Source: an uncultured Chloroflexia bacterium
GTDB lineage: Bacteria; Chloroflexota; Anaerolineae; Anaerolineales; UBA4823
Reading direction: 5' to 3'
Length of the DNA stretch: 64,000 nt
Assembly: GCA_963788305.1 (NCBI GenBank)
Contig: CAWBGK010000003.1
Span: 64,510 to 128,509, forward strand
Position 1 is the first letter of the stretch. Each line of letters starts with the position of its first letter. A program made the position numbers and the translations under genes. Below the pieces are notes generated by a model, which saw only the letters and a program-made list of their open reading frames with translations, searched no databases and was not told the DNA's origin. This document shows positions 3,796-39,410 of the stretch, piece after piece.

Positions 3796-4010
3796 GGCAG
3801 GTTTGTTCTCCGTTAATAAGAGATTTCTTTGTCGAAATCCTTCTCGTTGACATTACGACAATTTTCGGCACCAAAAAGGGCAAACTTGCCTTCTTGACCG
3901 ATCATATCAACGGTGAGAAATGAATTAATTATATATTCAAACATGTTCCATCCGCACGATATTCACCCGTTGAGTTCGTCAGCTTCCGATAAAAATAAAT
4001 CCGGCATCTC

Positions 4011-5114: not shown

Positions 5115-5153
5115 GTAGTTTCCTCCATAAAGCCGAATCTCACCAGATAGTTA

Positions 5154-6902: not shown

Positions 6903-6919
6903 TCGGTTTCTCCTAAACA

Positions 6920-14185: not shown

Positions 14186-14572
14186 TTACTTCACTTCGAA
14201 TGACTTCTTAACGCCTGGCAGCATCATGTAGATCAAAATAACTGTGTTGAGCAAGAAGCTGACGCCGGCATCCGAAAATGTTCCTTCACCCAGCGAAACG
14301 GTGAATCCCACGATCAGGTTGAAGAGCGTGATCACCACCAGGAATAGCCAGGCCTGCTTGTCGACATTCCAGAGCATCTTCACCAACCAGATATAGACCC
14401 ACACCATCAAAGCCCACATCAAGAAGGACCAGAAATTGAATGCAAACAGCTTAAAGGGACCAATCACAAACGGAATGAGCCCCAACGCTTGCAGAGCGTG
14501 GATGCCTGCCAGGACGCCGGCTAACGCTGCCAGAACGGCCAATACAGTGACACCAAACGGACGATTTTTCAT
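14186..14572 (-). CDS. small 4-TM membrane protein, unknown function
   Basis: ORF 14186..14593. The ATG at 14572 (MKNRPFGVTVLAVLAAL..) is preceded by TAGGAGA. Confidence 0.5.
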   Translation of the reverse strand: MKNRPFGVTVLAVLAALAGVLAGIHALQALGLIPFVIGPFKLFAFNFWSFLMWALMVWVYIWLVKMLWNVDKQAWLFLVVITLFNLIVGFTVSLGEGTFSDAGVSFLLNTVILIYMMLPGVKKSFEVK

Positions 14573-14672
14573 GTTATTTCTCCTAATGAACAAGAGTATT
14601 AATTGTGATGGTTTGAGTTATCCAAAAACTGTCTCATCAAACCTTGCCTGAAATCCTGTTGTTCCCTCAAGC

Positions 14673-16074: not shown

Positions 16075-16104
16075 TGTCTTCCTCCAGTTGGTTTAGTTTG
16101 GAAA

Positions 16105-17839
16105 TCATCCACCAGTACTTTGCTCAGTTGTTATCCCAAAGCGAGCGTGATATGCCGTCACCGCGGCGCGAACTGAGATATAGATGTTGTCTTTGCCAAG
16201 CCGTTTTGTCAGTCCTGTCGCCAGCAGAAGGTCACGCAGCGGTTCGTTCGCCCGTGCAATCCACAATTCCACGCCCATCCGCTCCAGGTCTGCGTCCAAA
16301 TTCTCCAGCGCTTCTGCCGCGGTTGAATCGAAATCGCTGATAGCTTCAGCGTCAAATATGACACATTTCAAGCCCTCACCGGCGTTGGCGATCAGCTCCT
16401 CCATGCGCTCTGTAAAATACGCCGCGTTCGCAAACACGAGCGGCGCGTCGAAACGATATACGATCAAGCCAGGCTCGGTCAGCGCGGTTTCCTTGTCGGC
16501 GACGCCTCGATACACCGTGCCTCCGCTCGCGTCCATATCGTCCAACAGCGCATCATGCGGCTTCGAGATGTGAAGCAGGATGTTGATCAGCGAAAGCAGC
16601 ACAGCCACGAGAATGCCCTGTAAGATGCCAACGGTGAGCACGCCGATCGCTGTCACCACAGCCAGCCAAAACTCGAGCGCGCTGCACCCGCCTTAAAAAG
16701 CGAAACGCAGCCACATCAATCAAACCGAACGAAGCGACGATGATGATTGAACCCAGCACAACGGAAGGTAGCGGCGCAAGCAGCGGTGTGAAAAAGAGCA
16801 AAAAAACAATGATGAGCACGGCTGCGATCAGCCCGACCCACTGCGATTTGCCGCCCATCTGGTCGGCGACCGTCGTGCGCGAGGCGCTGGTTCCTGCGGG
16901 AAATCCAGTCAATAAGCCTGCGCCGATATTGGCCATGCCGATCGCGATGAATTCCTGGTTAGCGTCGATCTTCTGGCCGTGTCTCACTGCAAAGACGCGC
17001 CCTGTCAGGACACCATCCGCATAAATCAGGATCGTGAGCGCCAGGGCAGCAGGCAGCAGTGCAAAGACATCCGCCAGGCTGAAAGCCGGGATCGACAGCT
17101 TCGGCAGTCCGGCTGGCACCTCGCCGACGATCGCGACGCCTTTCGATTGCAGGTCATAGACTGCAGAGATCATGATGCCGGCTACGACGACGATAAGCGG
17201 GCCGGGTAAGGCTCGATTCACGCGGCGAATGATGATCAGCGCGGTAATGCAGATGATGCCAATTGCGAATGTGAGCAGGTGGGTTTCATCGAGGCGGCTG
17301 ATCAGCTCAGCGATCTGTCGAAAGAACTGGTCGCTCTCGAGCTTGAAGCCGAATATCTTGCCCAGCTGGCTTGCGATGACGATCAAAGTGGTGCCAAAGA
17401 TGTAGCCGACCAGGATCGGCTTGGACAGCAGGTTGGTGATGAACCCCAACTTCGCTGCACTCGCGAGCAGCATCAGGATGCCGACCAGGATCGCGGCCAG
17501 CGCGGCCAGCGCGGCATAGCGAACCGGGTCGCCGCCTGCCAGCGGTGCAACGGCGGTTGCGGCCATGATCGCAGTTGTCGCTTCAGGTCCCGCGATCAGC
17601 TGTTTGGATGTGCCAAATAGGGCGTACATCACCATCGCGCCGAGGGCGACGTACAGCCCTGCAACCGGGGTGACGCCGGCAAGATCACCATATGCCATCG
17701 CTGATGGCACGAGGATCGCAAAGACCGTGACCGCCACAACCAGCTCGCTGCGTAGGAGTGCAGGATTCAGCCCCTTGAATAGGACAAGACCCGGAATGAA
17801 GCGTGCAATACCTTTGGAAGGCGGTATTGGGGCGTTCAT
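16105..17839 (-). CDS. SulP family anion transporter with STAS domain (second copy), frame change near 16688
   Basis: ORF 16553..17839 is the TM core, ending ..AAFRFLRRV. ORF 16105..16659 (..VTAIGVLTVGILQGILVAVLLSL.. plus STAS) is in another frame. Confidence 0.8.
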
Positions 17840-21203: not shown

Positions 21204-21845
21204 TCAGGAGACCAGATCGTTTTTTACCGCCAGCGCTGCCGCCTGCGCCCGGTTTGCAGCGCCCAGTTTTTGAATGCAGGCACTGACATGATGTCTGGCT
21301 GTGGCAGGACTGATTACCAGCCGATCGGCGATCTCTTCATTAGATAAACCTTCCACAATGAGTGCCAGAATTTCTAGCTCCCGTTTGCTCAAATCACTTC
21401 CCGGTTTTTGCGGGTTTGTTCTCATGTGGATCAACGCCTTTGTTGCCTCTGGCGCTAATGTCGGCTGTCCGGAATAGGCCGAACGAATGGCGCCAGCCAG
21501 TGTATCGATAGAGGCGTTTTTAAGCAAATAACCGATAGCGCCAGCCTCGAGTGATTCCTGGATCAAATCGTCTTTAGGATAACTCGTCAGCATGATAATT
21601 CTAACCTGTGGATATTGAGCAAGTATCGCTCGTGCGGCGTTGATTCCATCCATTTCTGGCATGATGATATCCATCAGGATCACATCGGGAAGGGATTGGC
21701 TGCAGCAAGCCAGCGCAGCATTCCCGTTCTCTGCCTCGCCGACCAGCATCAGGTCATCAAAAGCCAGCAGCATATTCTTTAACCCGTCACGTACAACAGG
21801 ATGGTCGTCGACAATCATCACTTTGATCGGATTAACAGGGATCAT
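21204..21845 (-). CDS. NarL/LuxR family response regulator (REC + HTH)
   Basis: KVMIVDDHPVVRDGL.., PDVILMDIIMPEMDG, C-terminal LSKRELEILALIVEGLSNEEIADRLVISPATARHHVS. Start taken at the ATG at 21845, just after the kinase stop (21853). Confidence 0.85.
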   Translation of the reverse strand: MIPVNPIKVMIVDDHPVVRDGLKNMLLAFDDLMLVGEAENGNAALACCSQSLPDVILMDIIMPEMDGINAARAILAQYPQVRIIMLTSYPKDDLIQESLEAGAIGYLLKNASIDTLAGAIRSAYSGQPTLAPEATKALIHMRTNPQKPGSDLSKRELEILALIVEGLSNEEIADRLVISPATARHHVSACIQKLGAANRAQAAALAVKNDLVS

Positions 21846-21852
21846 AATCAAT

Positions 21853-24714
21853 TCATCCTTCTGGAATAATCGGCCAATCAATGAGTGTTTCTGTTCCACG
21901 ACCGGATTTACTGAGAATTCGCATGGTTGCTCCGATCTCCTCTGCGCGTTCACGCATGATTTTTATCCCAAGATGGCCCTCTTCCACTGTCTGTGGGTCG
22001 AAACCGCATCCATCGTCCTGAATCCGCAGCTCTATCTGGCCTGGCTCTACGCGCAAGTCAACATCGACACGGGTTGCTTCCGCATGGAGGATCACATTAT
22101 TCATGGCCTCGCGTGCAATTCGATACAAGGCTAAGGATACATTTTCCGGCAGATCAGGTATGTCCATCACTGATATGGTGATGACAGCGCGAGAACGCGC
22201 TCGGGCAGCCTCAACCAGGGTGATCATCAATCTGTCTAAAGTTTGGTAGGATAACTCACCGGAGCGCAGTTCGATCAGCATGTTTCGCATCTCTGCTAAT
22301 GCGCCTCGAATCAACAGGCTGAGTTTGTCCATATTTTGGCGGGCGATCTTTTGATCCTTATCCCAAATGCGCGGGGTTGCTTCGGCGAGCACACTGGCTG
22401 TGAACAGGGTCTGCGTCACAGAATCGTGCAGCTCACGCGCCAGGCGGTTGCGCTCTTCGGCGGTGATCAGCGACTTTGTATGCTTATAAAGCTGCGAAAT
22501 TTCAATTAATTGGGCGATATCGATGGAGAAAATACTCAATAGCTTTATTTCTTCAGCTGTGATGTCCTTTCCTTCTTCATGTATCTCCATTCCTAAAAAA
22601 CCAAAGACCTGATCACGCAGGTAGAGTGGCACGAGCATAATACTCTGGATATTTGCGTCCTGAAAGTGGATGCCAATGGGTCCGATCATCGAGTCCAGCT
22701 GATCTTTTAAGACGAATATGAGTTTTCCGTGTTCCACTTTCGAATCCGATGGAATTTGCTCGGGCAGGGTTGTATAGGTACCGATTAAATTCGGATGATC
22801 TTCTTTGCGGTAGGAATGTGACAGTATTCTAAGTCGCCTCATTCCTTCGTCCAATTCTGCGATGAAGGAATCTTGAATCGAAAATAACCGATTGATGGTT
22901 TCGTTTATTTTTTCAAATATATCGGTGAGGTCCGAAGATCGAGCCATGGTCTCATTAACAAGCAGGATTGCTGAAAGCCACTCAAGCCGCAGCCGTAATT
23001 CCTTATTGGTCTCATTGATCTCCGCATTTGCAGCTTTTACTTCTGCAGTCCTTTCTTCTACAAGCGACTCAAGCCGTCTGCGGTATTCAACCAGCTCGGC
23101 TTCCGCCTGTTTACGCAGCGTGATATCCTGCAAGGCGACCACAGCAAATTCGACGTTCCCAGCATCATCCCAAATCGGATTTGCCCAGAATTCCAAGGCG
23201 ACGCGCTCGGTTCCCCGATCCATTTCGATGTCATCAGAAAAAGCAAACTCACCTTGAAGTGAGCTGTAAACCGGGAAATCTTCCAGCGGGTATTCCCGGT
23301 CACTGTCTGCAACTCTGATTGAGAAATCTTTAATCGCCTGCGCCAGGGTGCGTCCAACGGAGAGATCGGGCTGAACCCCTTGAGCAGGGTTTTTTAGGAT
23401 CTCTACCGTACGTCGGTTGAGATACTTGGGTCTTTGATCCTTGCCATATAAAATTACTCCAAGCGGCAAGGCCTCCAGGATCTGAGAGAGACGGTGTTCG
23501 CTGTTTTTCAACTTGCGGTTGGCGTTTTCTGTTTCAGATTTCAGCAGGTTGATGCGGTCGGCAAGCGCGATCGACCAGCACACGCTCATCCATATCATCC
23601 CGAACTTGTAAAAATTCTCCGTAAAGATCGTGCTGGTTATTATTACAAAACGGACCATAAGTACCATGATGAGGGAAGCCAGCAAACCAAACCAGGCGAT
23701 CAAAAAGAATCGGGCGGGATGGAAAGCCCTGCCGCCAGGAAGCTATCCCTGCTGCAAGAACCAACATGAGTGAGAGTACAGCCAAGGGTGCCATCAAATT
23801 CGCGATATTGTGATAACTGACAAATGGGGTCAGAAGCATCAGAACTCCCCAAAATGTTATGAAGCCAATCGTCACCCAATGGAGTAATGCGAGCCGAGTT
23901 TTTAATTCCAAGAATGCATCAATAAATAACATCATTGAAACGATCATTGCAGCGAAAGATAAGGGATAATAGATTTGCCTTAGGGAATATAGGTTCGGGA
24001 AAAAATAGACCTCCAGATAACCGTTGTAAGACAGCTCTTCGAAAATCAAACTCGCAAGCAAAATCACAAAAAACAGATAGCTGGCCTCTCGCAATGAAAA
24101 CAGTAAGAACAGGTGATAGACCAGCAAAGCCATCAATGCGCCGAAGAACAGCCAGTGAAGCATTTTTTCCTGTTGAGATTCGACGTAGAAAGCATCTCTC
24201 GTCCACAGAGTGAGCGGTAAGGTCATTGAAGCGCCATTTTGGAAGCGCAGGTAAAAGGTTTGCTGGCTTTGGGAGGGAACGGCCAGTTTGAGGAGGATGT
24301 AAGGATCAGGGATATCCCGTGTCGAAAGAGGTCTCAAAACCCCGGTCTGCTTCTCAATAAATCCTTCTCCGTCTGGGATAGGCGTGTAAAGGTCTACATA
24401 ATGCATATTAACAAAACCGACCTTCAACAGCCATTCGCCAACCTGTTGGGTTCGATTGTCCAGCCGCAGGCGTACCCAATACACGCTGTTCGTGAAACCA
24501 TAGTTCGGCACTTCCATCTGGCTGGGGATAAATTGGGAATCGAAACCTGAAGATGTTACTTTTCAATGGTCAGCTCCCCGCCAGGATCTTCAAGGATTTC
24601 CAGGTGCAGGCCAAGCGGGTATTCTGTCTGCTCGTCTGTCAGGACAAGGGGTTCCGGCATGGGTGGATTACTGCCTTGTGCAAAAGCCGTGCTGCAATAG
24701 ATCAAGATCACCAT
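21853..24714 (-). CDS. sensor histidine kinase: signal peptide, 7TMR-DISM extracellular + 7TM module, PAS, GAF, HisKA_3, HATPase_c; two frame changes (~24555, ~23705)
   Basis: ORF 23534..24517 has PNYGFTNSVYWVRLRL plus 7 TM. ORF 21853..23703 has coiled-coil/PAS/GAF, H-box ELHDSVTQTLF, and ATPase ..IQDDGCGFD..GHLGIKIMRERAEEIGA... The upstream piece MVILIYCSTAFAQG...LEILEDPGGELTIEK joins if the AAAA run at ~24557 is AAAAA. Confidence 0.8.
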
Positions 24715-25127
24715 AAAGGCGAAAAAGAACGAGGCTTTTATTCAGATTGCACTCTCTTTGTTTTACAATCTCAAACCATATGTTTGAGCTTTTTCCTATC
24801 AGGAACAATTAAGTGGCAAGAAACCAGAGAATCTTTTCTCGGTGAATGTGAGATTTCCCAACCATGGATTATATTCCAGGATTTAGAAAATGGATGCATG
24901 CAATAGGAATCGATGCTGGCGGCTGCCCTCGTGAAGGTTTCTAATTTCCGTATCACATTTCCTGGTTTTCAGAAATTTTCCATCCATTTACTTTGCTGCA
25001 GAAGAGGCTTAACCTGGTTGCAAGAATTACAAGGAATAGGAGTGTAAGAGTAGATGAGGTATACTTGGTAGAAATTCTGCAGCATACTCAGACCTAATAA
25101 CTCGTTGACAAGTAGCCAAGGATTCGC

Positions 25128-25898
25128 ATGAATTTGGTAGTTGAAAACGCTGCTCTAGATTATTCCATGAAGCGAACAGGGCAGCGTATCCTCGCGTTCG
25201 ACCACCTCAATTTTTCAGTCAATTCTGGCCAATTTGTGACAATTGTCGGTCCAAGCGGGTGTGGGAAGACCTCACTGCTCCTTGCTATCGCTGGGCTGCG
25301 CCCAATCTCTTCTGGCAGAATTTTCATGAATGGCAGGTCTGTAGAAGGACCCTGTCGGGAAGTAGCCATGGTGTTTCAGACCCCAGCCCTGCTCCCATGG
25401 CGAACTGTGAACCGAAATATTGCCTACGGTTTAGAATTACAAGGAGTGGCGAATGGGGAAATTCAAACACGTGTAAAAAGCATGATCGACCTGGTCCGGC
25501 TCGATGGTTTCGAGCAGAGCTATCCAAGGGAGCTTTCAGGAGGCATGCAGCAGCGCACTAATTTAGCACGAGCCCTGGTTACAGGTCCTGAGCTCTTATT
25601 ATTGGATGAACCTCTCGCCTCACTAGATGCTCAAACACGTGAAATCATGCAGCTTGAGCTCCAGAATATCTGGCTTTCGACAAGAAAAACGGCCATCCTG
25701 GTCACACACCAGATTGATGAAGCTATTTTTCTTGGCGATGTGGTCATTGTCCTATCCCCTCGACCAGGAAGGGTTATAGAAATCGTCCCTGTTGACCTGC
25801 CGCACCCTCGACCACATTCTGTGAAAAGTGACCCGGAATTCTTGAGGCTTCGCGATCATGTTTGGACGTTGATCCAACCTGTCTGTGTCGTTGGGTAA
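25128..25898 (+). CDS. ABC transporter ATP-binding protein (NitT/TauT family)
   Basis: Walker A GPSGCGKTS, signature LSGGMQQR, Walker B LLLLDEP. Length and tail are typical of nitrate/sulfonate/taurine-type importers. Confidence 0.85.
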   Translation: MNLVVENAALDYSMKRTGQRILAFDHLNFSVNSGQFVTIVGPSGCGKTSLLLAIAGLRPISSGRIFMNGRSVEGPCREVAMVFQTPALLPWRTVNRNIAYGLELQGVANGEIQTRVKSMIDLVRLDGFEQSYPRELSGGMQQRTNLARALVTGPELLLLDEPLASLDAQTREIMQLELQNIWLSTRKTAILVTHQIDEAIFLGDVVIVLSPRPGRVIEIVPVDLPHPRPHSVKSDPEFLRLRDHVWTLIQPVCVVG

Positions 25899-25929
25899 AT
25901 AAATTGCAACAGAATCCCAAATTGCGACA

Positions 25930-26769
25930 ATGGATAAAAATACTCGCACTGACAGCCATCCCAAGTCAAGGGAAATGGAAGGTTACATCGAAGAAGAACC
26001 TGATCGTTGGAGGAATTTTCTTCACAGGTATGAGAACCGATTGCTGGCTCTTGGTACAATCTTGTTCTTTTTAGTCGTTTGGGAGCTTCTCCCTCAGCTC
26101 AAGCTGGTAAAACCACTCTTCACAAGCTCACCTTCGCGGATCATCGAGGCTGCTGGATGGTTATTTGCACGCGGCTTCTGGTATGATATTTTCATCAGCG
26201 CAAGCGAGTTTGTGATTGGCTTTGGGTTGGCAGTGATCGTTGGAATTCCACTGGGAATCGTCTTGGGTTGGAACCAACGCTTGAATGCCATGTTTGATCC
26301 CTTTATTTCTGCTTTATATGCTACACCGCGGGTGGCATTGCTGCCTTTGATCATCCTCTGGCTGGGGATCGGCATGAAGTCGATCATTGCAGTAGTCTTC
26401 CTGGGTGCTGTTTTCCCAATCCTTGTCAACACCATATCAGGTGTGAAGAATATTGAAGAAACCCTTCTGTTATGCGCTCGATCTTTTTGTGCCAGCACGC
26501 ATCAGATATTATCCACAATCGCGATACCATCGAGCGTACCCATGATCATCGCCGGTATGCGCCTGGCAGTTGGCCGTGGCCTGGTTGGCGTCGTGGTTGG
26601 CGAATTGATCGCATCACGAGCTGGTGTGGGACATATGATGAGCCTGGCAGGCTCGACCTTTCAAACCGATAAGTTATTCGTTGGCGTGGTCCTCCTGGCA
26701 CTCAGTGGTTTTTTTCTAAATGAATTGCTTAAGAAACTGGAGGCCAAATTCGAAGGTTGGCGGCCGTAA
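25930..26769 (+). CDS. ABC transporter permease (NitT/TauT family)
   Basis: 279-aa intact ORF with 6 TM and an EAA-like loop ..EETLLLCARSFCAS... Confidence 0.75.
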   Translation: MDKNTRTDSHPKSREMEGYIEEEPDRWRNFLHRYENRLLALGTILFFLVVWELLPQLKLVKPLFTSSPSRIIEAAGWLFARGFWYDIFISASEFVIGFGLAVIVGIPLGIVLGWNQRLNAMFDPFISALYATPRVALLPLIILWLGIGMKSIIAVVFLGAVFPILVNTISGVKNIEETLLLCARSFCASTHQILSTIAIPSSVPMIIAGMRLAVGRGLVGVVVGELIASRAGVGHMMSLAGSTFQTDKLFVGVVLLALSGFFLNELLKKLEAKFEGWRP

Positions 26770-26793
26770 ATCTGGGTTTTGATGGAGGTTAGG

Positions 26794-27880
26794 ATGAAAA
26801 GCAGTATGCCCAATTGCATTTTCATATTTTCTGCTTTGATATTCGCACTTTCGGCTTGTTCTATCAACAGCTCCTTACCCACATCGTCTGTTATTCCACC
26901 CACAAAAGGGAATAGCCCGACCGCTATTCCCGAGAAAACCAATAGACGAATTGGAAAAGGTTGAAGTCTGCCACAGCGTCAATACCACCGTGTCATTACC
27001 GCTGTGGTATGCATACGAGCAGCAGCTGTTCCAAAAATACGGTTTAGAAGTCGATATCTTATCAGCAGGCAGCGGCACCAACGCAGCTACTGCAATGATA
27101 GCGGGTGAGTTCCCCATCTGTCAGCTTGCAGGATCAGCAGTGATCAATGCGGTTGTAGCTGGGGAGGATCTCGTCTACATCGCTGAGTATTTCAATGTCT
27201 ATCTTTTTTCTTTGATGGTTTCACCTGAAATTACGAGAGCCGAAGACCTGAAGGGGAAAGCCCTTGCGATCACTCAACCTGGGTCTGCAAACGATACCGC
27301 GATACGCGCCGCTCTCAAGCACATGGGTTTAAAGCCCGATATCGATGTGGCCATACTGAGCATTGGCGATGAGCCCGAGAGATTGGCTGCAATGGAAGCC
27401 GGTCAGGTTGCTGGTGCACTCTTCACACCTCCAACTACTTTAAAAGTGCGCGAAAAGGGTTACTGGCAATTATTAGATCTATCAACAATTAAAGAAGCGT
27501 ACACCCGTCAGGGTATCGCGACAACCAGGGAATATCTTCGATCCCATAGGACAACTGTTGTCGCTTTTATGAAAGCGATAAGTGAAGCCATCGCCCTCAT
27601 GAAAAAAGATCCGCAAGGGACTAAAACTACCTTGGCAAAATACCTCGCATTGGACGAAAACACCAATTCGGCACTGCTGGAAGCTGCTTATCAGGAAATT
27701 ATCATCGCTTATCTGCGGGAAAAACCATATCCTACTTTAGAAAGCATCGAAACAGGATTGGCGGAGATCGAAACGCTGAATCCTGACGCTGCGAACATAG
27801 AGCCTGAACAAGTCATGGATGAGACGATAATTCGAGAATTAGACGAATCGGGTTTTTTCGATAGACTGTATCACCAGTAA
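26794..27880 (+). CDS. ABC substrate-binding lipoprotein (NMT1/THI5-like, NitT/TauT family), frame change at ~26938
   Basis: MKSSMPNCIFIFSALIFALSAC lipobox with GGAGG RBS (ORF 26779..26964). The reading continues as ..PIDELEKVEVCHSVNTTVSLPLWYAYEQ.. (ORF 26951..27880). The frame is restored by changing the AAAA run at ~26936 by one base. Confidence 0.7.
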
Positions 27881-27954
27881 CATATATGAAACCATTCAAG
27901 TCTTCGGCTTTTCAATCAACCATTCTGTTTTGATGATTTATTCGGAAAATAGAT

Positions 27955-29508
27955 ATGAAGATGCAAGCAGCATTGAGATTCGATAAAAGCGAGATACAAG
28001 CATCCATTGCAGCAAGATTTGATCGAGTATCTGCCTTGGTTCCAAACCTGCAGGCAGTGAAGAGTCAACGTTACAGCTGGACCTATGCTTATTTACGCAA
28101 AAAGGCGGACCAAATAGCTTATTCGTTGATTGAAAGTTATGGTACGGGGGCTGAGCCAATTGCCCTGCTCCTGGATCATGACGCCCCATTGATTGCAAGC
28201 ATCCTCGGGGTACTCAAAGCCGGAAAGTTTTATGCTGTGCTGGACCCTGCTTACCCGAATGGATATCTCTCGGATATTCTGAAAAATCTTGGGGCGCGAG
28301 TATTGGTCACTGACTCACAAAACTTTCAGTTATCTCGAACACTAATTTCGCCAGGCTGTGACTTGATTGTTTATGAGGGAATAGACGATCATTATCCAGA
28401 ACTGGAGACATCCATCAACCTATCTGGGGATATGCCGCTTGCGATCTATTTTACATCAGGCTCGACAGGCAGATCAAAAGGAGTAATTCGGTCTCAAAGT
28501 TTAACATTGCACAGGACCTGGTTCGACAGGCAGCAGCATCCAGTCTATCCCGATGATCGACAGACACTGTTGACCTCTTGCAGTTTTGCATCCTCACCGA
28601 CAGATATTTTTAATGCAGTTCTTAATGGCTGCACCCTTTCAATCTATAAGGTTCGCGACCACGTTGCAGGGGAGCTGAAATCGTGGATAAATCATGAAGG
28701 AATAACCTTGTTGCATCCTCCTATCGCCTATTTCCGATACTTCATTGGATCATTGGATCAAAATGATTTTTTCCCTTCAATTCGCCAGGTGACCCTGACT
28801 GGTGATGTGTTATTCCGCAAAGATATCGAAAATGCCTGGAAACACTTCTCAAAAGAATGCACTTTTGCGCATTGTCTTGCGTCCAGTGAAGCGGGTTTAA
28901 TCAGCAAGATGATCATCACCAATAAAAATGTACTCACGAATCCCATCATTTCAATCGGTTATCCGGTTGATGGACGGGAAATCTGGATCATGGATGATTC
29001 AGGAAAACGCTTGGACTCTGCCCAGACAGGCCGTATCGGAATTCGCTCTCCCTATTTATCCTCAGGTTATTGGAATCTGCCCGAGGAAACAGCAAAACAT
29101 TTCTTCCAGGATCCCGAAGATCCTTCCCAGAGATTCTTTCTCAGCGGAGACCTCGGAAGGATCAAGGAAGATGGGACTTTAGAGGTGCTTGGTCGGGAAG
29201 ACGCTGTGGTCAAGGTTCGAGGTTATCGAGTTGACCTGGCAGTTATCGAAGCCGCCTTACTGGAAACAGACGATTATCGAGAAATTGCTGTTCTTGCTAC
29301 CTCAGGTCCTGATGGAGAAAAACAGATTGCTGCCTATTTAGTACACCGGGTAAGTGCTGCTCTGGATGAGCAGGCAGTCCGGAGTGACCTGGCAAAGAAA
29401 CTACCAGAATATATGCTCCCATCAACCTATTCCTTCCTAGAAATGCTTCCTCGGCTACCCAATGGAAAGGTTGACCGGCTGTTTTTAGCTAAGTACCAAG
29501 CAGGTTGA
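27955..29508 (+). CDS. NRPS-type adenylation (A) domain protein
   Basis: Core motifs: LKAGKFYAVLDPAYP (A2), LAIYFTSGSTGRSKGV (A3), SGDLGR (A7), GREDAVVKVRGYRVDLAVIE (A8), LPRLPNGKVDR (A10). Confidence 0.8.
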   Translation: MKMQAALRFDKSEIQASIAARFDRVSALVPNLQAVKSQRYSWTYAYLRKKADQIAYSLIESYGTGAEPIALLLDHDAPLIASILGVLKAGKFYAVLDPAYPNGYLSDILKNLGARVLVTDSQNFQLSRTLISPGCDLIVYEGIDDHYPELETSINLSGDMPLAIYFTSGSTGRSKGVIRSQSLTLHRTWFDRQQHPVYPDDRQTLLTSCSFASSPTDIFNAVLNGCTLSIYKVRDHVAGELKSWINHEGITLLHPPIAYFRYFIGSLDQNDFFPSIRQVTLTGDVLFRKDIENAWKHFSKECTFAHCLASSEAGLISKMIITNKNVLTNPIISIGYPVDGREIWIMDDSGKRLDSAQTGRIGIRSPYLSSGYWNLPEETAKHFFQDPEDPSQRFFLSGDLGRIKEDGTLEVLGREDAVVKVRGYRVDLAVIEAALLETDDYREIAVLATSGPDGEKQIAAYLVHRVSAALDEQAVRSDLAKKLPEYMLPSTYSFLEMLPRLPNGKVDRLFLAKYQAG

Positions 29509-29551
29509 TTCTGAGAAGCCTGAACCCTCGACTGATCTGCTGGAAAACGAG

Positions 29552-29827
29552 TTGGACAAAATCGTATGTGAAACATTGGGTTTACAAACGATTGGTCGCG
29601 ATGACGATTTATTTGCTTATGGCTGCAACTCACTTTTGGCAGCCGAGATCATCACAAAATGCACAAAGAAATTCCAGGTCGATATTCCTATGAGAATTTT
29701 TTATGAAAATCCCAGTATGGATGGTTTGGCAGCGTATCTTAAAAGTCAAATAAATGGTCCCCAGTCCATAAGAAACCAACTTGAAATCAACCCCGACATT
29801 CAAGATTATTTAAGCCAGTTTGCTTGA
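29552..29827 (+). CDS. peptidyl/acyl carrier protein (PP-binding); probably the C-terminal T domain of the preceding A protein
   Basis: DDDLFAYGCNSLLAAEII (GxxS phosphopantetheine site). The frame is open back to 29489 as ..VDSEKPEPSTDLLENELDKIV.. with no ATG/GTG and no RBS before the TTG at 29552. Confidence 0.7.
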   Translation: MDKIVCETLGLQTIGRDDDLFAYGCNSLLAAEIITKCTKKFQVDIPMRIFYENPSMDGLAAYLKSQINGPQSIRNQLEINPDIQDYLSQFA

Positions 29828-29909
29828 ATGTTTTTTTGGGGTGCACAGAATCAGTAGGAGTCCCGTACCAAACAGGTTCAGCAACATATACAAAGTATTG
29901 GAGTAGCTT

Positions 29910-30572
29910 GTGGAAAAATTGATCATCTTCGGGAATGGCTCGGTTGCAAGTGTCCTTTATTATCACTTGAAGAGGGATACAGATTATCAGATCGCTGGAT
30001 TTACAGTCGATCGTAACGTGATCGAATCCAATACTTTCATGGATTTACCGTTATCATCTTTCGATGAAGTCCAGGAAAAATTTCCCCCGGGTGAATTCAA
30101 GATGATCGTTGCCGTTGGTTATGTAAGGGTAAACCAGCTCCGCGCAGAACGCTACTTTCAAGCAAAGGAGCTGGGTTACCAGATGATAAACTACATCAGC
30201 CCGCGGGCCACCGTCTGGTCAGGATTAGAAATTGGGGATAATTGCAGGATCGGGGATCATTGCATCATTTCTCCATACTGCAAAATCGGTAATGATGTTT
30301 GGATCAGTTCCGGCAGCATCATCGGTCATCATTCAGTCATAAAGGATCACTGCTACTTCTCCTCCAGCGTGAACATCGCTGGATTTGTGACTGTTGAGCC
30401 GTACTGTTATCTTGGGATGAGCGCCGTGATCCGGAATAATATCTCGATCGCTCGTTCGTGTATTATTGGGGCTGGGGCGGTCATATTAGGAGATACACAG
30501 GAGAAGGGAGTATATATGGCGCCCGCCGCCCAAAAGCTCCCGATCAACAGCGACCAGATTTCTCCAAAGTGA
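29910..30572 (+). CDS. NeuD/PglD-family sugar acyltransferase (N-terminal Rossmann-like domain + left-handed beta-helix)
   Basis: MEKLIIFGNGSVASVLYYHL.. N-domain, then hexapeptide repeats IGDNCRIGDHCIISPYCKIGNDVWISSGSIIGHHSVIKDHCYF... GTG start with GGAG upstream. Confidence 0.7.
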   Translation: MEKLIIFGNGSVASVLYYHLKRDTDYQIAGFTVDRNVIESNTFMDLPLSSFDEVQEKFPPGEFKMIVAVGYVRVNQLRAERYFQAKELGYQMINYISPRATVWSGLEIGDNCRIGDHCIISPYCKIGNDVWISSGSIIGHHSVIKDHCYFSSSVNIAGFVTVEPYCYLGMSAVIRNNISIARSCIIGAGAVILGDTQEKGVYMAPAAQKLPINSDQISPK

Positions 30573-30624
30573 GGAAGAATAAAGAGAAAAAAAGGTCGGA
30601 GTCATCAAATGGATTTCAACCCAT

Positions 30625-31371
30625 GAGCCTTCTGATCCGCTTTGGCGGTCCCCGCCGTCTCCCTGGATCCTGGGCAGCGCAGAGATCCATGTCTGGTGCA
30701 CCTCGCTTGACCTACCATCGCAGCGGGTTGATGAAATGGTGCAGACTCTTTCCGCTAATGAGCGCCAGAGAGCCGACATCTTCCATCTCGAACGAGAAAG
30801 GCAACGCTTCATCGTGGGGCGAGCTGTTCTCAGAAGAATTCTAAGCTTCTACCTGGAACTGGATCCAGACCAGGTGCAGTTCTGGTACGGACCGCGCGGC
30901 AAACCCTATCTGGCTTCGAGACACGGGAAAGTTAAGACCAGGATTCAACCTCGCTCACGCCGGTCCGCTTGCCCTTTTTGCTTTCAAAAACGACCAGGAA
31001 ATTGGCATCGATGTCGAGCTGGTGCGCCCCACTCCTGATATGGACTTAATCGCTTCGAGATTTTTCTCTCCATCCGAGAACAAAACTTATCAAGCTTTGC
31101 CTGAATCACCGGAAAGAGATGGGGTTCTATCGATCTTGGGTGCGTAAAGAAGCGTACCTTAAAGCACTGGGGGAATGGATTCTCACAGCATATGGAATGT
31201 GTTGACGTTTCATTGTTGTCCGTAGAACAAGTCCGACAGTTGAATACCGCTTGGGATCCTGATGAGCTAGACCGCTGGTCTTTGATCTCGTTCACCCCTT
31301 CACTCGGTTTTGTGGCAGCGCTTGCAGTACCAGGACATGATGATCACGCCATAACTTTTAAGTATGAATAA
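30625..31371 (+). pseudogene. Sfp-type 4'-phosphopantetheinyl transferase, at least 4 frame changes
   Basis: Pieces in three frames: ..SPPSPWILGSAEIHVWCTSLDLP..LSANERQRADIFHLERERQRFIVGRAVLRRIL..GPRGKPYL / ..FNLAHAGPLALFAFKNDQEIGIDVE.. / ..WVRKEAYLKALG.. / ..FVAALAVPGHDDHAITFKYE-stop. Confidence 0.65.
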
Positions 31372-31428
31372 CTGGCAGCGCCGCACGTGAGGACGTTTGC
31401 ACAACTCATCTGTCAAATAAAGTTAGCT

Positions 31429-32780
31429 GAGAGTGTTGAAAAACAAATTAGGAATTGACCTTTAGGCAGAAGTTTAATACAATCGCAGCATACTTCGACA
31501 AGGAGCAGCTCATGGAGAAGAAGCGGTTTGTAGAAACAGGTCGAGATTCCTTCTTCGGTGATTATTTATATGACCAGGTGGTCCCTCAAGATCATTTTCT
31601 GCGCAAGCTGAAGCAAGATATCGATTGGGGACGATTTACCCGCAGGCTGATCAGGCTGTACAAAGGGGAAGGCCTGGTAGGCAGACCGCCATTCGACCCG
31701 GCACTGGTTCTGAAGGTTGAATTGATTGCCTATCTGTACAACCTGTCTGAACGACAGGTGGAAGCGTACATCAATGAGAACCTACCAGCAAAATACTTTG
31801 TAGGATTAGCGGTAGATCAGAAATCACCAGACCATTAGACGCTGACTGTTTTTCGAGAACGGCTGCTGCAGCGCGGCAAGCTGAAAGTGTTCCAAGAGCT
31901 GTTGGATGAAATTGTACAGATTGCGCTTGAAAGCGGGATCAAGTTTGGCTCAATCCAGATCGTAGATAGTGTCCACAGCGCTGCAAATGTCAACACGGAT
32001 AAAGAGCACCGGCGAAAGAAGAAAGGGAAGGGCCCGCACGATCCGGATGCCCAGTGGGGTGTGAAGCACAAGCGCAAAGTCACAAATGGAGAAGGGAAAG
32101 AAGAAGAGCAAATCCAGTATTTCTACGGCTACAAAGCCCATGTTAGCCTGAATGCCGAAAATGGTTTGATCACCAGCCTGGAGACCAGCTCCGGCGAAGT
32201 TTACGATGGTCATCACTTCTGTTCGCTGGTGGATCATGATCTCGAACAGAAATCTGCCGCTAGAGACCTATACAGCGGATAAAGGTTATGATGATGGCGC
32301 CAATCACTACTATCTGGAAGTACACCAGCTGCATTCAGCGATCCGGCTAAGAAACTCGTACGCACAAGAAAGATCATAACAAGCAGGTCTGGCTGGACCT
32401 GGAGCGAACGCCGCAATATCGGCAGGGATTGAAGGAGCGTTACAAGATTGAACGTAAGTTTGGTGAAGCCAAGCAGGGGCATGGCTTGGGACGCTGTCGA
32501 TATGTGGGGAAAGCAGGATTTGCGGTGCAGGCTTTTCTGACTGCTATTATGCTCAATCTCAAACGGATCATAAAATTGGTGACTGGTGTGGGCTTCAAAG
32601 TACAGGTTGTTTCCAATGCTTAGCCAGGGGTGAATTGTCAGTGTTGCCCGAAAGCAGACAATAAGGAGCCAATAAAAGGTCAATTTCAAGTGAAAAAGAT
32701 GCGTTTTTATCGATGATCCCTGGTCAAAATGCACTTCATTAGCCAGCTTCGGTTGAATTCATGTATTTATCAACACCCTC
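31429..32780 (+). mobile_element. IS5/IS1182-like insertion sequence, about 1.35 kb, inactive copy
   Basis: Imperfect terminal inverted repeats GAGAGTGTTGAAAAACAAAT..GGAATTGACC (31429-31460) versus the reverse complement of 32749-32780 (GAGGGTGTTGATAAAT..GAATTCAACC). They enclose a DDE transposase reading frame. No clear target-site duplication seen. Confidence 0.6.
31512..32623 (+). pseudogene. IS5/IS1182-family DDE transposase (DUF772 N-domain), in-frame TAG plus two frame changes
   Basis: MEKKRFVETGRDSFFGDYLYDQVVPQDHFLRKL..GRPPFDPALVLKV..PDH-TAG(31836)-TLTVFRERLL in one continuous frame. Frame changes at ~32260 (..TYTADKGYDDG..) and ~32365 (..KERYKIERKFGEAKQGHGLGRCRY..). Confidence 0.7.
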
Positions 32781-32984
32781 TATAAATCAATCGGTAATTT
32801 CCCTTTTCTCCCTTTGAATTAAGATCAACTCAACGACATCATTCATATTTATCTCAAACCGATAAAAAGGCAGGACAATCCAAACCTCTCAATTCGAGGA
32901 TTCGGACGGTTGGCGTTCAAGCTCGAGTTTTTTTCTCGCCGAAAGGTTAGTACAATTCTTGCAACTATATTCACAGAAAAAACC

Positions 32985-33678
32985 ATGAGACGCATTGACA
33001 GAATTGGCGGGATTTTAGCTGGGATCAGCCTTTCTTTTATTATTTTCATATTTGCATTCAATTGGAGCACACGTTCACCAGAAACGCAGGTCAAGGCTGG
33101 TTCATTGGCCTCCCAAAAGCCGGTAAATGGCTGGTATGTGTGTGGGAATCTGGGTATAGGCCCGGTCCCGGGTGTACCAGAACCGCGCCAGCGCCTCAAA
33201 TTGTGCCATGATAGCGGTTGGGTAGCCTATACCTACTGCACCCAGCCAGGTCTGCCAGTCCCGCCGATGGGTAGGCGCTGCACTCGAAATCAGCGACGAT
33301 ACCTATCGATGCGGAGCCCTCTACCAGCGCTTGCGCGAGTATCGCATCGTACAAACACCCGTCGAGACAAATACTCCCACAACCACGCCCACGCCAACCG
33401 CCAGTCCAACTCCTACGATTACTCCCAGCCTGACTCCCACGATTACTGCGAGTCCGACTCCAACACAGACTGCAAGCCCGACTCCAACACTGACTGCAAG
33501 CCCGACGATGTACCGCTGGATTGCCTCTCCTACGCCTACAAGCGGACCGCGCGTAAACCCCGGTGGGGAAGGCAATTCCACAATGTTGCGAGCGCTGATC
33601 GTTGTCGAGACAGGCTTATTAATTATCTCGGCATTTATAGGGGTTTGGATTATGCGGGGCTTGAAAAAGCTCCGTTGA
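32985..33678 (+). CDS. membrane/surface protein: N-terminal TM anchor, Cys-containing domain, Thr/Pro-rich linker, C-terminal TM helix + basic tail; frame change near 33280
   Basis: MRRIDRIGGILAGISLSFIIFIFAF.. (frame of ORF 32910..34580) joins ORF 33331..33678 (..TPTTTPTPTASPTPTITPSLTPTITASPTPTQTASPTPTLTASPT..NPGGEGNSTMLRALIVVETGLLIISAFIGVWIMRGLKKLR-stop). Confidence 0.4.
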
Positions 33679-33692
33679 CTCGCACCAAGCGC

Positions 33693-34580
33693 ATGCCATT
33701 TCCTGAACTATTTCGCTTTTTTTCCATCTCCAGGTTCAAGTGGATCGGGATAGTGTTTATTGCCCTATTGCTCGACCTGCTGATTAACCTGGTTTTATTC
33801 TCCGCCAGACCTGATCTGTTCTTGAAGAACAAACCTGATCCGGTTGAAGTCACGCCGAGGGTCATAAGCCTTTGGTCTCCAATCGGCACACCGTATCAGC
33901 CGCTGCCTCCAACCCCATCCTTACATGCGCCTACCTCCATAAATGCCTTGAGTACACCTTTCCCAGAGCCTTCAACCAACTTTTTTGGCATCGATTTCCG
34001 CCCGGGAGCGGCTCGCATAAAAATTCTCGTCCGACCCCAAACTGACAGGCTCAACGACGGAAAACCGATCACCATTGAGGTTAATCCGGGCAGCTCCTGC
34101 CATTATCAGGATCACCGCGCCTGCGTCAGCGCCTTCCGTCAAGGCAGATCTGGAAATGTCATCTTCATCAGCGTGCACTCGGGAATCGGTGGAGAAGCAG
34201 AAGTCTACCGGCGAGCCATAGAAGGAATGGGGCTGGACCAGGCTGGCTTCTCGATCAAGCTGATTCGCTCAAATCTGGCGAGGTTGGAAAACGCTCCGGT
34301 CCAAATCAGACAGGGGGACCGGATTGTGGGCGGCTTGAAACTGGCGGCAGCCATGCGAGTACCGCCAGGGCTGCTCCAGGATTATTTCAACGGCTCCGTC
34401 GAGCAGGCCATAGCACTCGCCGCTTCGGTTAATCCAAACCTGGGTGATTATCCTGATCCAGAAACCCAGCTGTTAGTTTTTGAAACTTGTGGCTGGAAGC
34501 AGCCCGACGAGCCGTGGATGCCGGGAGTTTCCAGCACTACCGGCTCTGTTTATCTCGGTGTGATCCAGTCCGAACCATAA
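33693..34580 (+). CDS. N-terminally membrane-anchored extracytoplasmic protein of unknown family (His...Thr-Cys arrangement)
   Basis: The ATG at 33693 lies 14 nt after the preceding stop. TM helix FKWIGIVFIALLLDLLINLVLF, Pro-rich linker, then a ~200-aa domain with ..VIFISVHSGIGG.. and ..ETQLLVFETCGWK.. near the C-terminus. No RBS seen, so the start is uncertain. Confidence 0.4.
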   Translation: MPFPELFRFFSISRFKWIGIVFIALLLDLLINLVLFSARPDLFLKNKPDPVEVTPRVISLWSPIGTPYQPLPPTPSLHAPTSINALSTPFPEPSTNFFGIDFRPGAARIKILVRPQTDRLNDGKPITIEVNPGSSCHYQDHRACVSAFRQGRSGNVIFISVHSGIGGEAEVYRRAIEGMGLDQAGFSIKLIRSNLARLENAPVQIRQGDRIVGGLKLAAAMRVPPGLLQDYFNGSVEQAIALAASVNPNLGDYPDPETQLLVFETCGWKQPDEPWMPGVSSTTGSVYLGVIQSEP

Positions 34581-36951: not shown

Positions 36952-39410
36952 CTATTTGATCGTGATGGTATGCGTGGTGGTTACGGTCTTTCCGTTGTCA
37001 TCCATCACGGTCAGTGTAACGGTATAGGTACTTGGTTTTTCATACTGGTGCTGGACGGTCATACCGGTGCCTTTTCTACCGTCCCCAAAGTCCCAGGCAT
37101 ACCCGATGATGCTTCCACCAGAGGTGGAGCTGCTGGCTTCAAACTTGATCGGTTGGTCGACAGCCCCTTCAGTGGGAGCCTTGATAACCGCCTCGGGAGC
37201 AGCCGGTGGTTTTGCGGTCGGTTCCTCGGTTGGAGTGGGTTGTTCAGTCGGCTCTACCGTTGGCTCTGCAGTGGGTTTTTCGGTCGGCAGGGGCTCGACC
37301 GTCGGCCCCGATATCGGCACGTAGGTCGGCGTTGGGGTCGGGGGGATTGCTGTTGGTCCGGGGGGAAGTGGCGGGAGCGGCGTGGGGGGCACAATCGGTA
37401 CCAGTGGAGCCGGTGAGTTGTAGAAGACCAGCAGCCCGCTGCGCGTGCCGATCAGCAGCTGATTGGAAGCCAAGCTGAAGCTGTTTGCAGTCTGCAAGGC
37501 CGCCAGATATGCAGCTTCCTGATCCATCACCCCCGGCGGCTCTGGGCATAGGCTCATGGACGAAGCGATCTGGCCAAGCTGCAGTGAACCCGTGATCGGG
37601 GCGTTGTAGGTATTGCAGCCCGCGTTACCCGAGATCGTGCCAGTTTGTCCGTCGGCGTTGATGGCGAATTCTGCGGTGGTCTGTGTACCCGGCAAAACCG
37701 GCCTTGGGCCGATCATCACCAGCCACCAGCGGGTGCCGTTCAATGGGGTAAGCGGTCCTCCGCTGGGCGGGGGCGTCACCTGTGGCACATAGGCAGTAAA
37801 GTTGAGCGCCTGCCGGCCCTCGTCGTAAGGGATTTGCAGTGTATTTCCCAGGATGCGGTAGGTGGATGCGGCGTTCAAGCCCAGGAAGAACTGCTGCTCC
37901 TGCTCCCAGAAGGACGTCGGGCAGTTAGGGTTGTTAGTCTTGTTGGGCAGGTTGACCTTGAGCTCGTTCAGGTTAGCCAGGTAGGCAGCGTTGTAGTCGT
38001 TGCAGCCCGTAGAGCCTATGATCAGACCGGAGGGTCCTCCTTCCTGGGGAGTGAACTGGGCGGTGAAATCCCCACCCTGGGAAGGTATCGTGGGGCTGTT
38101 TACATCACCCATGGATGTCAGGCGCCAGGCAGTGCCTTCCAGGGGGGCGCGGTTGGCGCTGAACGTCAGCACCCCCTTCTCGGAGGTGATCACCAGCGTC
38201 TCGCCATATACCTGGTAGCTCTTAGCAGCTTCCAGAGTCTCCAGATAAGTGGCCTCAGCCTGCAACACATTATCAGGGCAGCGAATCTGGGTCGCTGACA
38301 GGTCGTCAATTTTGAGCACCTGCTGGTCGAGGCTGTAGCTGCCGCTATAGTTGTTGCACATGGCGACGCCGCCCAGCTTCCCGATGCCAGGCTCCGTCCC
38401 GGGCTCGAACAGGGCGGTGGTGGGTACCAGGCCTAGCCGGTTCACCTCGCTGTTTACAGTCACCAGCGTCCAGAGCACATTTTCAATGGGCATGTGCTGC
38501 GAAGTGAAGCGAAGCACTCCCTGTCCACCGCCGTAAGTGATCTCCAGGGTTCCATCGTTTATGGTGTAGCTTCCGGCTTCCGTCAGAGCTTGCATGTAGG
38601 CGGCTTCCTGCTCCATGCCTTTGGTGCAAGCTCGCATCGTGCTGGCGGGCATTTTGATTGCTATCCGGCCATCTTTGGCGACATACGAGGTCGTATAGAA
38701 GTTGCAGCCGGCTGCGCCGCTCAGGATTCCCTCTTCGGAGAACTGGGCGGTGATCAGTGTGCCCGCCTCCGGAGCCGATGGATTGTCGGGTTTGCCGAAT
38801 GATTCCAGCACCCACAGTGTGTCCACCAGCGATTTCTGGCTGGGCGTATACACCAGCTTTTTTTCATATACCGAGCTGGAGTCGTAGAAGATCTCGAGGC
38901 GGCCTGGGGGGTGAAGGCGATCTTATAGGCGCTTTGCAGCGCTGCCAGTAGGATCGCTTCCTGGTTCATGCCCTGCTCGCAAGCCATCATTGTGGATCCA
39001 AGCGGGCCAATCTTGATCTGTTCGCCATTCATTTCGTACGAGCCGAAGAAGTTGTTGCATCCAGCTGAGCCGTTCAGACTGCCGTCTTCCGCAAACTGCG
39101 CCGTTACGGTGGTGCCCGGTTCGATAACAGTCGGATTGCCGGCGTCGCCGTAGCCGAGCAGCAGCCAAAGTGGTCCGACCAGCTGGGCCGACAGGTCCAC
39201 CTCCGGTGCGCTTGCGACGACCGGCTCGGCGGTGGACTGCGGCTCCGGCTTGGTGGTGGTCGTGGCTGCAGGCGGTGGGGTTGGCGGGGCGGGGGGCTCC
39301 GTGGGCGCCGGGGCAGGTTGGCAGGCGGATATCAGAAGGGTAAATATCAAGCATAGACTACTCCCCAAAGCAATGTGAGAGGTTGTCATTTTTATATTGT
39401 TACTCATCAC
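36952..39410 (-). CDS. large secreted lipoprotein: five META (HslJ-like) domains, Pro/Thr/Glu linker, C-terminal PKD domain; frame change near 38905
   Basis: Lipobox ..SLCLIFTLLISAC (ORF 38754..39410), with GGAGG 5 nt upstream of the GTG start at 39410 (ATG at 39407 is the next codon). Five repeats of the ..W.L......G..T..F...G...G.(A/T)GCN.(Y/F)...Y......(I/L)....(M/L).(A/C).... type. C-terminal ..IIGYAWDFGDGRKGTGMTVQHQYEKPSTYTVTLTVMDDNG.. (PKD). Confidence 0.7.

Follow-up and report, generated by a model that had tools for sequence, protein, structure and literature searches.

An importer-linked adenylation, carrier and NeuD-type acyltransferase cassette of a Chloroflexia bacterium may represent a truncated N-acyl-amino-sugar module

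The question raised by this locus is how an acyl group loaded by a nonribosomal peptide synthetase (NRPS)-type enzyme could leave its carrier when no domain that usually releases it is at hand. In a stretch of 64 kb from an uncultured Chloroflexia bacterium (contig CAWBGK010000003.1; the whole stretch is called the window hereafter), positions 25128-31371 hold a cassette of an ATP-binding cassette (ABC) importer, an NRPS-type adenylation (A) domain, a carrier (T) domain, a NeuD-like beta-helix acyltransferase and a phosphopantetheinyl transferase (PPTase), all on the plus strand and with spacers of 9-82 bp on the open reading frame (ORF) map. Gene families were called by Pfam and NCBIfam profile searches together with the ORF map, and the annotation confirmed all seven families, the common strand and the short spacers of a preliminary description of this DNA. 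As that description had also stated, the profile searches found no condensation (C), thioesterase (TE) or reductase (R) domain in the cassette or in the scanned flanking ORFs. The answer that we consider rather probable is that a module for N-acyl-amino-sugar synthesis, coupled to an importer, is present here in truncated form, and that in it the beta-helix enzyme would draw the acyl group from the carrier.

The transferase gene (29910-30572, +; 220 aa) encodes a left-handed beta-helix acyltransferase of the NeuD/PglB/VioB family, which scores 171.4 bits over residues 3-205 with TIGR03570 against a cut-off of 160.8. Its best solved relatives are PglD, VioB and PerB, all of which act on nucleotide 4-amino sugars, and all family-invariant residues are intact in the window protein. 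His140 aligns with the histidine of the PglD 'EH' pair, presumably the catalytic His125 of Campylobacter jejuni PglD, and is invariant in an alignment of 25 sequences and present in 96% of 137 homologues. Homologues number 752 at E<=1e-10, and those found in the plasmid collection are all below 40% identity and labelled 'acetyltransferase'.

A neighbour-joining tree of the 137 homologues, all taken from the fetched loci, puts the window transferase in a clade of 17 leaves, every one of which has a PP-binding domain within 4 kb (17/17), whereas outside the clade a carrier is found at that distance in about 12 of about 120 and most others adjoin a DegT gene only. Within 3 kb, a carrier is present in 10 of the 13 loci that share at least 50% identity and have enough flank. 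The carriers of the clade are either A-T didomains or the terminal modules of NRPS or polyketide synthase (PKS) lines without a TE domain. For three high-GC loci (L009, L011 and L016) greedy ORF calls were unreliable and the contexts were scored by hidden Markov model (HMM) matches only. The gene context of the clade argues for a carrier-borne thioester as the predicted acyl donor rather than acetyl-CoA. The A-T and NeuD-like genes are thus co-conserved when checked as the preliminary description had proposed, and its suggestion that an acid is adenylated, loaded and then off-loaded by the beta-helix enzyme gains strong comparative-genomic support as a putative route, both from the 17 carrier-adjacent clade members and from the T domains or acyl carrier proteins (ACPs) without TE that stand before the transferase.

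A terminal carrier adjoins the transferase in at least seven different architectures. In the relatives with 80% identical transferases (L002, L003 and L006) the order is ABC ATPase, permease, NMT1-type substrate-binding protein (SBP), a fused A-T protein of 617-636 aa, NeuD and DegT, the last of these starting 24 bp after the NeuD-like gene. At 66-69% identity (L001 and L091) the A-T gene is followed by Glyco_trans_1_2 (GT1_2), NeuD and DegT, with a GT4 glycosyltransferase, a methyltransferase and a heparinase-like gene nearby, and at 52-54% (L086 and L094) the order is methyltransferase, A-T, optionally GT1_2, and NeuD, then a different ABC importer. Two further loci (L087 and L093; 51-60%) read Iso_dh, isochorismatase/Aldedh, NeuD and A-T. 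NeuD is preceded by an NRPS of Ser-type code and a KS-AT-ACP module without TE in two loci, L089 from Nitrospirae and L014 from Pirellulales, and in L014 an intact PPTase gene lies directly after the NeuD-like gene, the same position as in the window. A very large NRPS ending in A-T is followed by GT1_2, DegT and NeuD in L018, and in L109 and L114 an NRPS A domain interrupted by a luciferase-like monooxygenase is followed by T and then NeuD.

Some of these loci show further features. On the proteobacteria-like contigs of L087 (6823-10013) and L093 (10856-14005) the NeuD/A-T pair is accompanied by a LeuB/tartrate-dehydrogenase-like Iso_dh and by an isochorismatase-aldehyde dehydrogenase fusion, enzymes that may make the acid substrate, and no DegT was detected within 5 kb of the pair in either. 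The L109 line (3690-8635), like that of L114, is a soil-metagenome NRPS without TE, with the NeuD-like gene immediately after T. The L094 block of A-T, GT1_2, NeuD, importer and DegT is flanked by Tn3-, Mu- and IS66-type transposase genes (L094:1-4000 and 14300-16500), which hints that the module is mobile. A Legionellaceae locus (L052:6469-16725) holds a GT2 glycosyltransferase, a methyltransferase, two unknown ORFs, a NeuD-like gene, an ACP, an SDR-like gene, an unknown ORF, an AMP ligase, a small GtrA-like membrane protein, DegT and, as judged by eye, an RmlB-like gene; the chemical logic is the same but is spread over separate proteins, and the NeuD clade is a distant one.

What the carrier would be loaded with is the next step. 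The A enzyme is encoded at 27955-29508 (+; PF00501, AMP-binding, and PF13193, AMP-binding_C) and the carrier domain (T/PCP) at 29489-29827 (+), with a 91-aa ORF called from 29552; the latter scores 53.9 bits with PF00550 (PP-binding) against a cut-off of 20.8 and carries its serine in 'GCNSL', in agreement with the GxxS motif. The T frame is open from 29489 and one frameshift in the linker splits it from A. Since every relative that was compared has a fused A-T protein, they are most likely one gene rather than the two that had been listed, and that single frameshift has very probably severed the carrier ORF, as the C-terminal end, from the A protein. The core motifs of A and the serine of T are intact, and the A domain scores 243.1 bits with TIGR01733, below the cut-off of 317.4. 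Its best match in the Protein Data Bank is LgrA, and it reads 'SFASSPTDIF' where LgrA reads 'SFDGSALDIF', so that Asp235 (PheA numbering), which binds the alpha-amino group, is replaced by Ala. Position 235 is A, M, T, P, G or S in 14 of the 14 stand-alone A-T relatives, while the NRPS-embedded A domains of the same loci keep Asp. The simplest reading is that the loaded substrate would be a small carboxylic acid other than an alpha-amino acid, varying by lineage.

The ten-residue code of the window A domain is ASTHTTCISK and its A5 motif, 'LASSE', is atypical. The stand-alone A-T partners share such an unusual A5 motif (xASSE/xxTE, as against YGPTE) and have variable pocket codes, with Arg at position 322 in most relatives and Cys in the window. 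The nearest relatives of the window A domain are the A-T proteins of transferase loci, which share 41-47% identity with it; a fragment in L090 reaches 68%. About 25 residues past the last carrier these proteins carry a short conserved tail. It has the form 'DYLSQF[AG]' in Chloroflexia-type A-T proteins, many others carry a tail of type 'xLLG[LFY]x', and it was seen at the C-termini of A-T and PKS proteins in the window, L001, L002, L008, L014, L018, L086, L087, L093 and L094. In the window it reads '...DYLSQFA' (29780-29827), as it does in P0122-P0125 and P0131. Speculatively, the tail may be a docking helix or element for the transferase. A database protein of 824 aa (P0184) unites in one polypeptide A, T and a C-terminal hexapeptide-repeat transferase, the last looking LacA/WcaF-like and belonging to another subfamily than NeuD.

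As for the acceptor, the genes around the pair in relatives are informative. A DegT gene lies directly downstream in L002 and L006 and is also present in L001, L091 and L094; the partners in L002 and L094 score 498-514 bits with TIGR04427 (DesI, the dTDP-4-keto-6-deoxyglucose 4-aminotransferase), which does not reach the cut-off of 650 and is well above the next-best model. Because a DesI/VioA-like aminotransferase follows in the closest relatives and the solved relatives of the transferase act on 4-amino sugars, the acceptor is most likely an NDP-4-amino-4,6-dideoxyhexose, as far as sequence comparison can tell. The preliminary description had taken the cassette for a self-contained orphan, and had itself named a larger NRPS or polysaccharide locus in relatives as the finding that would speak against its reading; in relatives, the pair does sit in a larger amino-sugar locus, with a DesI/VioA-like aminotransferase, often Glyco_trans_1_2 and sometimes other glycosyltransferases and methyltransferases.

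The link to an importer, which had been noticed in the window, recurs in relatives. The window encodes together a NitT/TauT-type ATPase (25128-25898, +; PF00005, ABC_tran, 110 bits), a permease (25930-26769, +; PF00528, BPD_transp_1) and an NMT1/THI5-like substrate-binding lipoprotein (26779-27880, +; PF09084 and PF13379; mature part 26951-27880). Across loci, importers of three binding-protein families adjoin the pair: the NitT/TauT type in L002 and L090 as well as in the window, a set of SBP_bac_1, fused permease and TOBE-ATPase in L086 and L094, and a TctC binding protein in the P0023 locus. The window ATPase is 81-82% identical and the permease 71-79% identical to the orthologues of L002 and L090. 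In L090 (6345-14833), where many genes are frameshifted, the order is ABC, permease, SBP1, A-T1, SBP2, A-T2 and a GT1_2-like gene up to the contig end; the two SBP/A-T pairs are divergent paralogues, SBP1 and A-T1 being orthologous to the window genes (77% and 58-68%), and SBP2 and A-T2 closer to those of L002 (48% and 56%). Since it is exactly the SBP-A-T unit that is duplicated, this tandem suggests that the SBP and the A domain may recognise the same molecule. The low identity of these two parts had also been considered as a sign of co-diversification (between window and L002 it is 53% for SBP and 44% for A-T, as against 80% for NeuD and 81% for ATPase); the argument was dropped, because both diverge fastest in every locus pair and low identity is then no evidence of co-varying specificity, which leaves the L090 tandem duplication.

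Taken together, we hypothesize the following route. The SBP-dependent ABC importer would take up a small organic acid, which the A-T protein would adenylate and thioesterify onto its phosphopantetheine arm, the substrate probably being no alpha-amino acid and the arm being installed by the Sfp/HetI-type PPTase. With the carrier rather than CoA as its acyl donor, the VioB/PglD-like beta-helix transferase would then N-acylate a nucleotide-linked, viosamine-like 4-amino-4,6-dideoxyhexose at the 4-amino group. In the closest relatives this sugar would be made by the DesI/VioA-like aminotransferase encoded immediately downstream, and a glycosyltransferase would finally place the acylated sugar in a surface glycan. 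No DegT/DesI-type 4-aminotransferase was found in the 64-kb window by tblastn or HMM, nor any GT1_2 or sugar dehydratase gene, nor a second A or T domain. With neither aminotransferase nor glycosyltransferase in the window, a frameshifted PPTase and an insertion sequence (IS) element abutting the cassette, the window copy would either rely on genes in other parts of the genome or be in decay.

Decay leads to the most serious of the alternatives, which we regard as doubtful while giving it real weight, namely that the window copy is a non-functional remnant, in which a rearrangement beside the IS removed the aminotransferase gene and frameshifts are accumulating, so that the mechanism would hold for relatives only. 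The reading frames are damaged. Three-frame translation and HMM searches place the homology to HetI/Sfp-type PPTases (about 30610-31371, +) in four frame segments, with at least four breaks in 0.76 kb, the densest in the window, and no intact PPTase ORF scoring above the family cut-off occurs there. When stitched together, the pieces score 193.6 bits with NF042922 (HetI), below the cut-off of 370, and the N-terminal domain PF22624 scores 31.9 against 27. To this are added the break in the A/T linker and one in the binding-protein gene, whose signal peptide (26779-~26945; lipobox 'LSAC', with the segment in the other frame running to 26964) is out of frame with the mature part. The families of the seven genes in the preliminary description therefore stand, but not their intactness as separate genes, given the PPTase in four frames, the split of A from T and the displaced signal of the SBP. 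Furthermore, DegT is missing here at the very place where it starts 24 bp behind the NeuD-like gene in 80%-identical relatives, and a broken IS element lies directly downstream. This element borders the cassette, as had been described, in the form of a transposase gene in three ORF pieces (31455-32623, +; DUF772, DDE_Tnp_1 and DDE_Tnp_1_6), and no terminal inverted repeats of it were found.

Against a remnant it can be said that the core motifs of A, the serine of T and the family-invariant residues of the transferase are all intact, and that NeuD followed by PPTase is the native order in L014. Moreover, frameshift-split genes occur window-wide, among them those for an aldehyde:ferredoxin oxidoreductase, a META protein, an AbgT-family transporter and a histidine kinase, and an error-prone assembly would fit the fact that metagenome-assembled genomes of Chloroflexia are the closest relatives. 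The frame switches of the PPTase adjoin short runs of C or G (CCC, GGG, GGGG and GGGGG), and that of the SBP lies near an AAAA run, a junction across which the L090 orthologue is continuous. With split genes throughout the window, sequencing or assembly error and true decay look alike here; a codon-usage heuristic for counting frameshifts across the window was abandoned, as true frameshifts could not be separated from ordinary gene junctions. The window copy is therefore best described as a truncated and frame-damaged example of the module, which is possibly decaying.

The carrier-dependent donor proposed for the module also has to be weighed against an ordinary one. That the transferase is an acetyl-CoA-dependent sugar N- or O-acetyltransferase, with the A-T protein serving another pathway and the adjacency reflecting a mere shared locus, seems to us improbable, although the characterised PglD, VioB, PerB, WeeI and NeuD all use acetyl-CoA and the published scheme for Pseudomonas syringae treats VioB as an acetyltransferase (PMC3927599). 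Against it, adjacency to a carrier is complete in the 17-member clade and sporadic elsewhere, and NRPS and PKS lines end in T or ACP without TE, C or R and have the transferase directly after them. No other off-loading candidate is conserved across the architectures, and the A-T-hexapeptide fusion of P0184 exists, though its beta-helix part is of another subfamily.

A still slimmer chance is given to the idea that the imported compound is the acceptor and not the acid, a small amine such as taurine or 2-aminoethylphosphonate being N-acylated with an endogenous acid from A-T. Two unrelated importer families adjoin the pair, and their best, weak matches are to taurine systems (the TauA structure and a taurine ATPase model) and to 2-aminoethylphosphonate systems (PhnS and PhnU2, for the importer of L086 and L094), both ligands being 2-aminoethyl-XO3 compounds. 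All importer matches are, on the other hand, far below family cut-offs. The best NCBIfam models for the window ATPase are the taurine and SaoA ATPases, at about 230 bits (231 against a cut-off of 357), the permease is SaoP-/TauC-like at 138-158 bits against cut-offs of 295-342, and the SBP scores 37-39 bits against 300 or more for the named equivalogs, so that none of the three reaches the cut-offs of TauABC or another named NitT/TauT equivalog; the nearest solved structure to the SBP is the taurine-binding protein, at only E=1.5e-7. The transferase, in addition, appears to be of the two-domain nucleotide-sugar type and is 80% identical to orthologues that stand directly before a DesI-like aminotransferase, each SBP of the L090 tandem has an A-T, and not a transferase, as its partner, and in another locus the SBP is of the carboxylate (TctC) type. 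A thiamine pyrophosphate-regulated ThiXYZ-type importer of hydroxymethylpyrimidine was also considered and found unsupported, since no riboswitch or other Rfam family was detected at 24000-33000 at E<=1.

The reading of the cassette as an importer-coupled N-acyl-amino-sugar module meets several difficulties of its own. We infer donor, acceptor and imported ligand all from gene neighbourhood. The AlphaFold2 model of the transferase shows an alpha/beta N-domain followed by beta-helix strands with moderate confidence (pLDDT 77), and the top 13 Foldseek matches to it, which are all PglB-ATD, Pcryo_0637, PerB, WeeI, VioB or PglD and so belong to this family of nucleotide amino-sugar N-acetyltransferases, have TM-scores of only 0.33-0.45. 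The residues specific to the clade (N9, V72, R81, A157, L210 and I212) form no obvious carrier-docking surface. The matches of the SBP to taurine- and 2-aminoethylphosphonate-binding families lie far below cut-offs, A-T and SBP are the fastest-diverging parts of every locus pair compared, six or more frame disruptions run through the cassette, and the window holds none of the DegT, GT1_2 or sugar dehydratase genes that the route calls for. A DegT gene within 5 kb is missing in 7 of the 17 clade members as well, so that the acceptor may differ between lineages.

Upstream of the cassette lie divergent genes for a response regulator of the NarL type together with a 7TMR-DISM/PAS/GAF histidine kinase (21204-24517, -), and they are absent from the loci of relatives, so that no link between them and the cassette is shown. 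The 610 bp between them and the cassette (24518-25127), which had been described as a divergent control region, are a plain spacer: promoter- and terminator-like matches in it were not above shuffled controls and stay at chance level, and no Rfam family matches. The histidine kinase gene (21853-24517, -) is split between two frames, as are those of the META/PKD-domain protein (36952-39410, -) and the AbgT-family transporter (42729-43872, -), and the aldehyde:ferredoxin oxidoreductase gene (52945-54740, -) consists of three overlapping ORFs, implying two frameshifts. A 556-aa ORF (32910-34580, +) has no Pfam match and is overlapped by a frame (33331-33678, +) encoding a long Thr/Pro-rich 'ASPTPT' linker, the two probably belonging to one frameshifted secreted or anchored protein. 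An exact-sequence look-up of the window's proteins gave no match.

A wider proposal may be put forward tentatively, as one that we would not yet call probable. Some bacteria, Chloroflexia first, might import small organic acids from outside by dedicated binding-protein importers and use them as N-acyl decorations on the amino sugars of surface glycans, through NRPS-like A-T proteins and a carrier-dependent clade of VioB/PglD-type transferases; the same clade would release NRPS and PKS chains without TE onto nucleotide sugars, and SBP-A-T units would act as exchangeable specificity modules, a role to which the L090 tandem points. If this is true, a clade of the PglD/VioB family would use a carrier-protein thioester as acyl donor in place of acetyl-CoA, N-acylation of a nucleotide sugar would be a new mechanism of release from thiotemplate assembly lines, and environmental acids would be imported and shown on cell-surface glycans. 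Annotation would gain too, as such proteins, if they bear a name, are now called only 'acetyltransferase' or 'NeuD-family sugar O-acyltransferase'. We consider the interest moderate to high for the clade overall and lower for the window copy.

The preliminary description could put no name to the system, yet it can be named as a variant of VioA/VioB-type N-acyl-viosamine synthesis, with precedents at hand (PMC3927599; PMC3441752). Among the papers of an incomplete library on NeuD, PglD, hexapeptide or DegT proteins with adenylation or carrier partners, none was found to describe the arrangement, and the tetronate and viosamine systems were the only precedents. The flagellin viosamine island of P. 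syringae comprises vioA, vioB (213 aa), acp (69 aa), vioS, vioR, vioM and vioT, encodes a ketoacyl synthase (KAS) III and a reductase along with a methyltransferase and a glycosyltransferase, and yields N-(3-hydroxybutanoyl)-2-O-methylviosamine on flagellin (PMC3927599). It resembles the present system in its NeuD/PglB/VioB-family transferase, which is paired with a DegT/DesI-type 4-aminotransferase in the window's relatives, in the dedicated carrier protein of the locus, and in a non-acetyl N-acyl 4-amino-4,6-dideoxyhexose for a surface glycan, as proposed here. It differs in that ACP, KAS III and reductase supply the acyl group there and an NRPS-type A-T didomain would do so here, in that an SBP-dependent importer is attached here, and in that the window is without equivalents of vioA, vioT and vioM; identity of the window transferase to solved VioB is also low (phmmer E=2e-13).

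In the tetronate module of Vibrio cholerae O1, where the roles of the Wbe/Rfb K and O genes were reportedly described by Morona et al. in 1995, the WbeL protein is homologous to AMP ligases, and next to its gene lie those for an ACP and a hexapeptide transferase. Likened by gene roles, the two systems share an AMP-forming ligase-like protein (WbeL in the module), an ACP-like protein and a hexapeptide acyltransferase in an amino-sugar locus, and with them a logic of activation, tethering and transfer. WbeL, which has a putative ATP-binding domain, is needed for the tetronate N-acylation of perosamine (PMC3441752). The tetronate module differs in that synthesis and reduction of its acyl group take place on the carrier, in its separate proteins and in having no importer.

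More distant likenesses are found among enzymes of the cell envelope. LpxA and LpxD take their acyl groups from acyl-ACP and O- or N-acylate UDP-sugars; they share with the window transferase the left-handed beta-helix and, on the reading proposed here, a carrier-borne donor and a nucleotide-sugar acceptor, and are weaker matches to it. They are of another subfamily, depend on housekeeping AcpP with 3-hydroxyacyl chains that are long, and end in a helical ACP-binding domain at the C-terminus, which the window transferase lacks. In DltA/DltC and AlmE/AlmF/AlmG a stand-alone A enzyme and a carrier feed an acyltransferase other than a condensation domain, which decorates an envelope polymer, and DltA models match the window A protein. 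The Dlt and Alm systems, however, activate D-Ala and Gly and keep Asp235, and their transferases are of membrane-bound O-acyltransferase (MBOAT) or LpxL type, with teichoic acid or lipid A as acceptor. PglD/PglE (bacillosamine) and PerB (perosamine), the best solved relatives in sequence and structure, share the catalytic His and are likewise paired with an aminotransferase; they use acetyl-CoA as donor and have no carrier or adenylation partner. The system is thus, on the sequence comparisons made here, a variant of VioA/VioB-type, carrier-assisted synthesis of N-acyl-amino sugars with a dedicated carrier, which recurs in many bacteria. Its new element is the coupling to importers, which sets it apart from the precedents together with the A-T loader of NRPS type and the placing of the transferase last in NRPS and PKS lines without TE.

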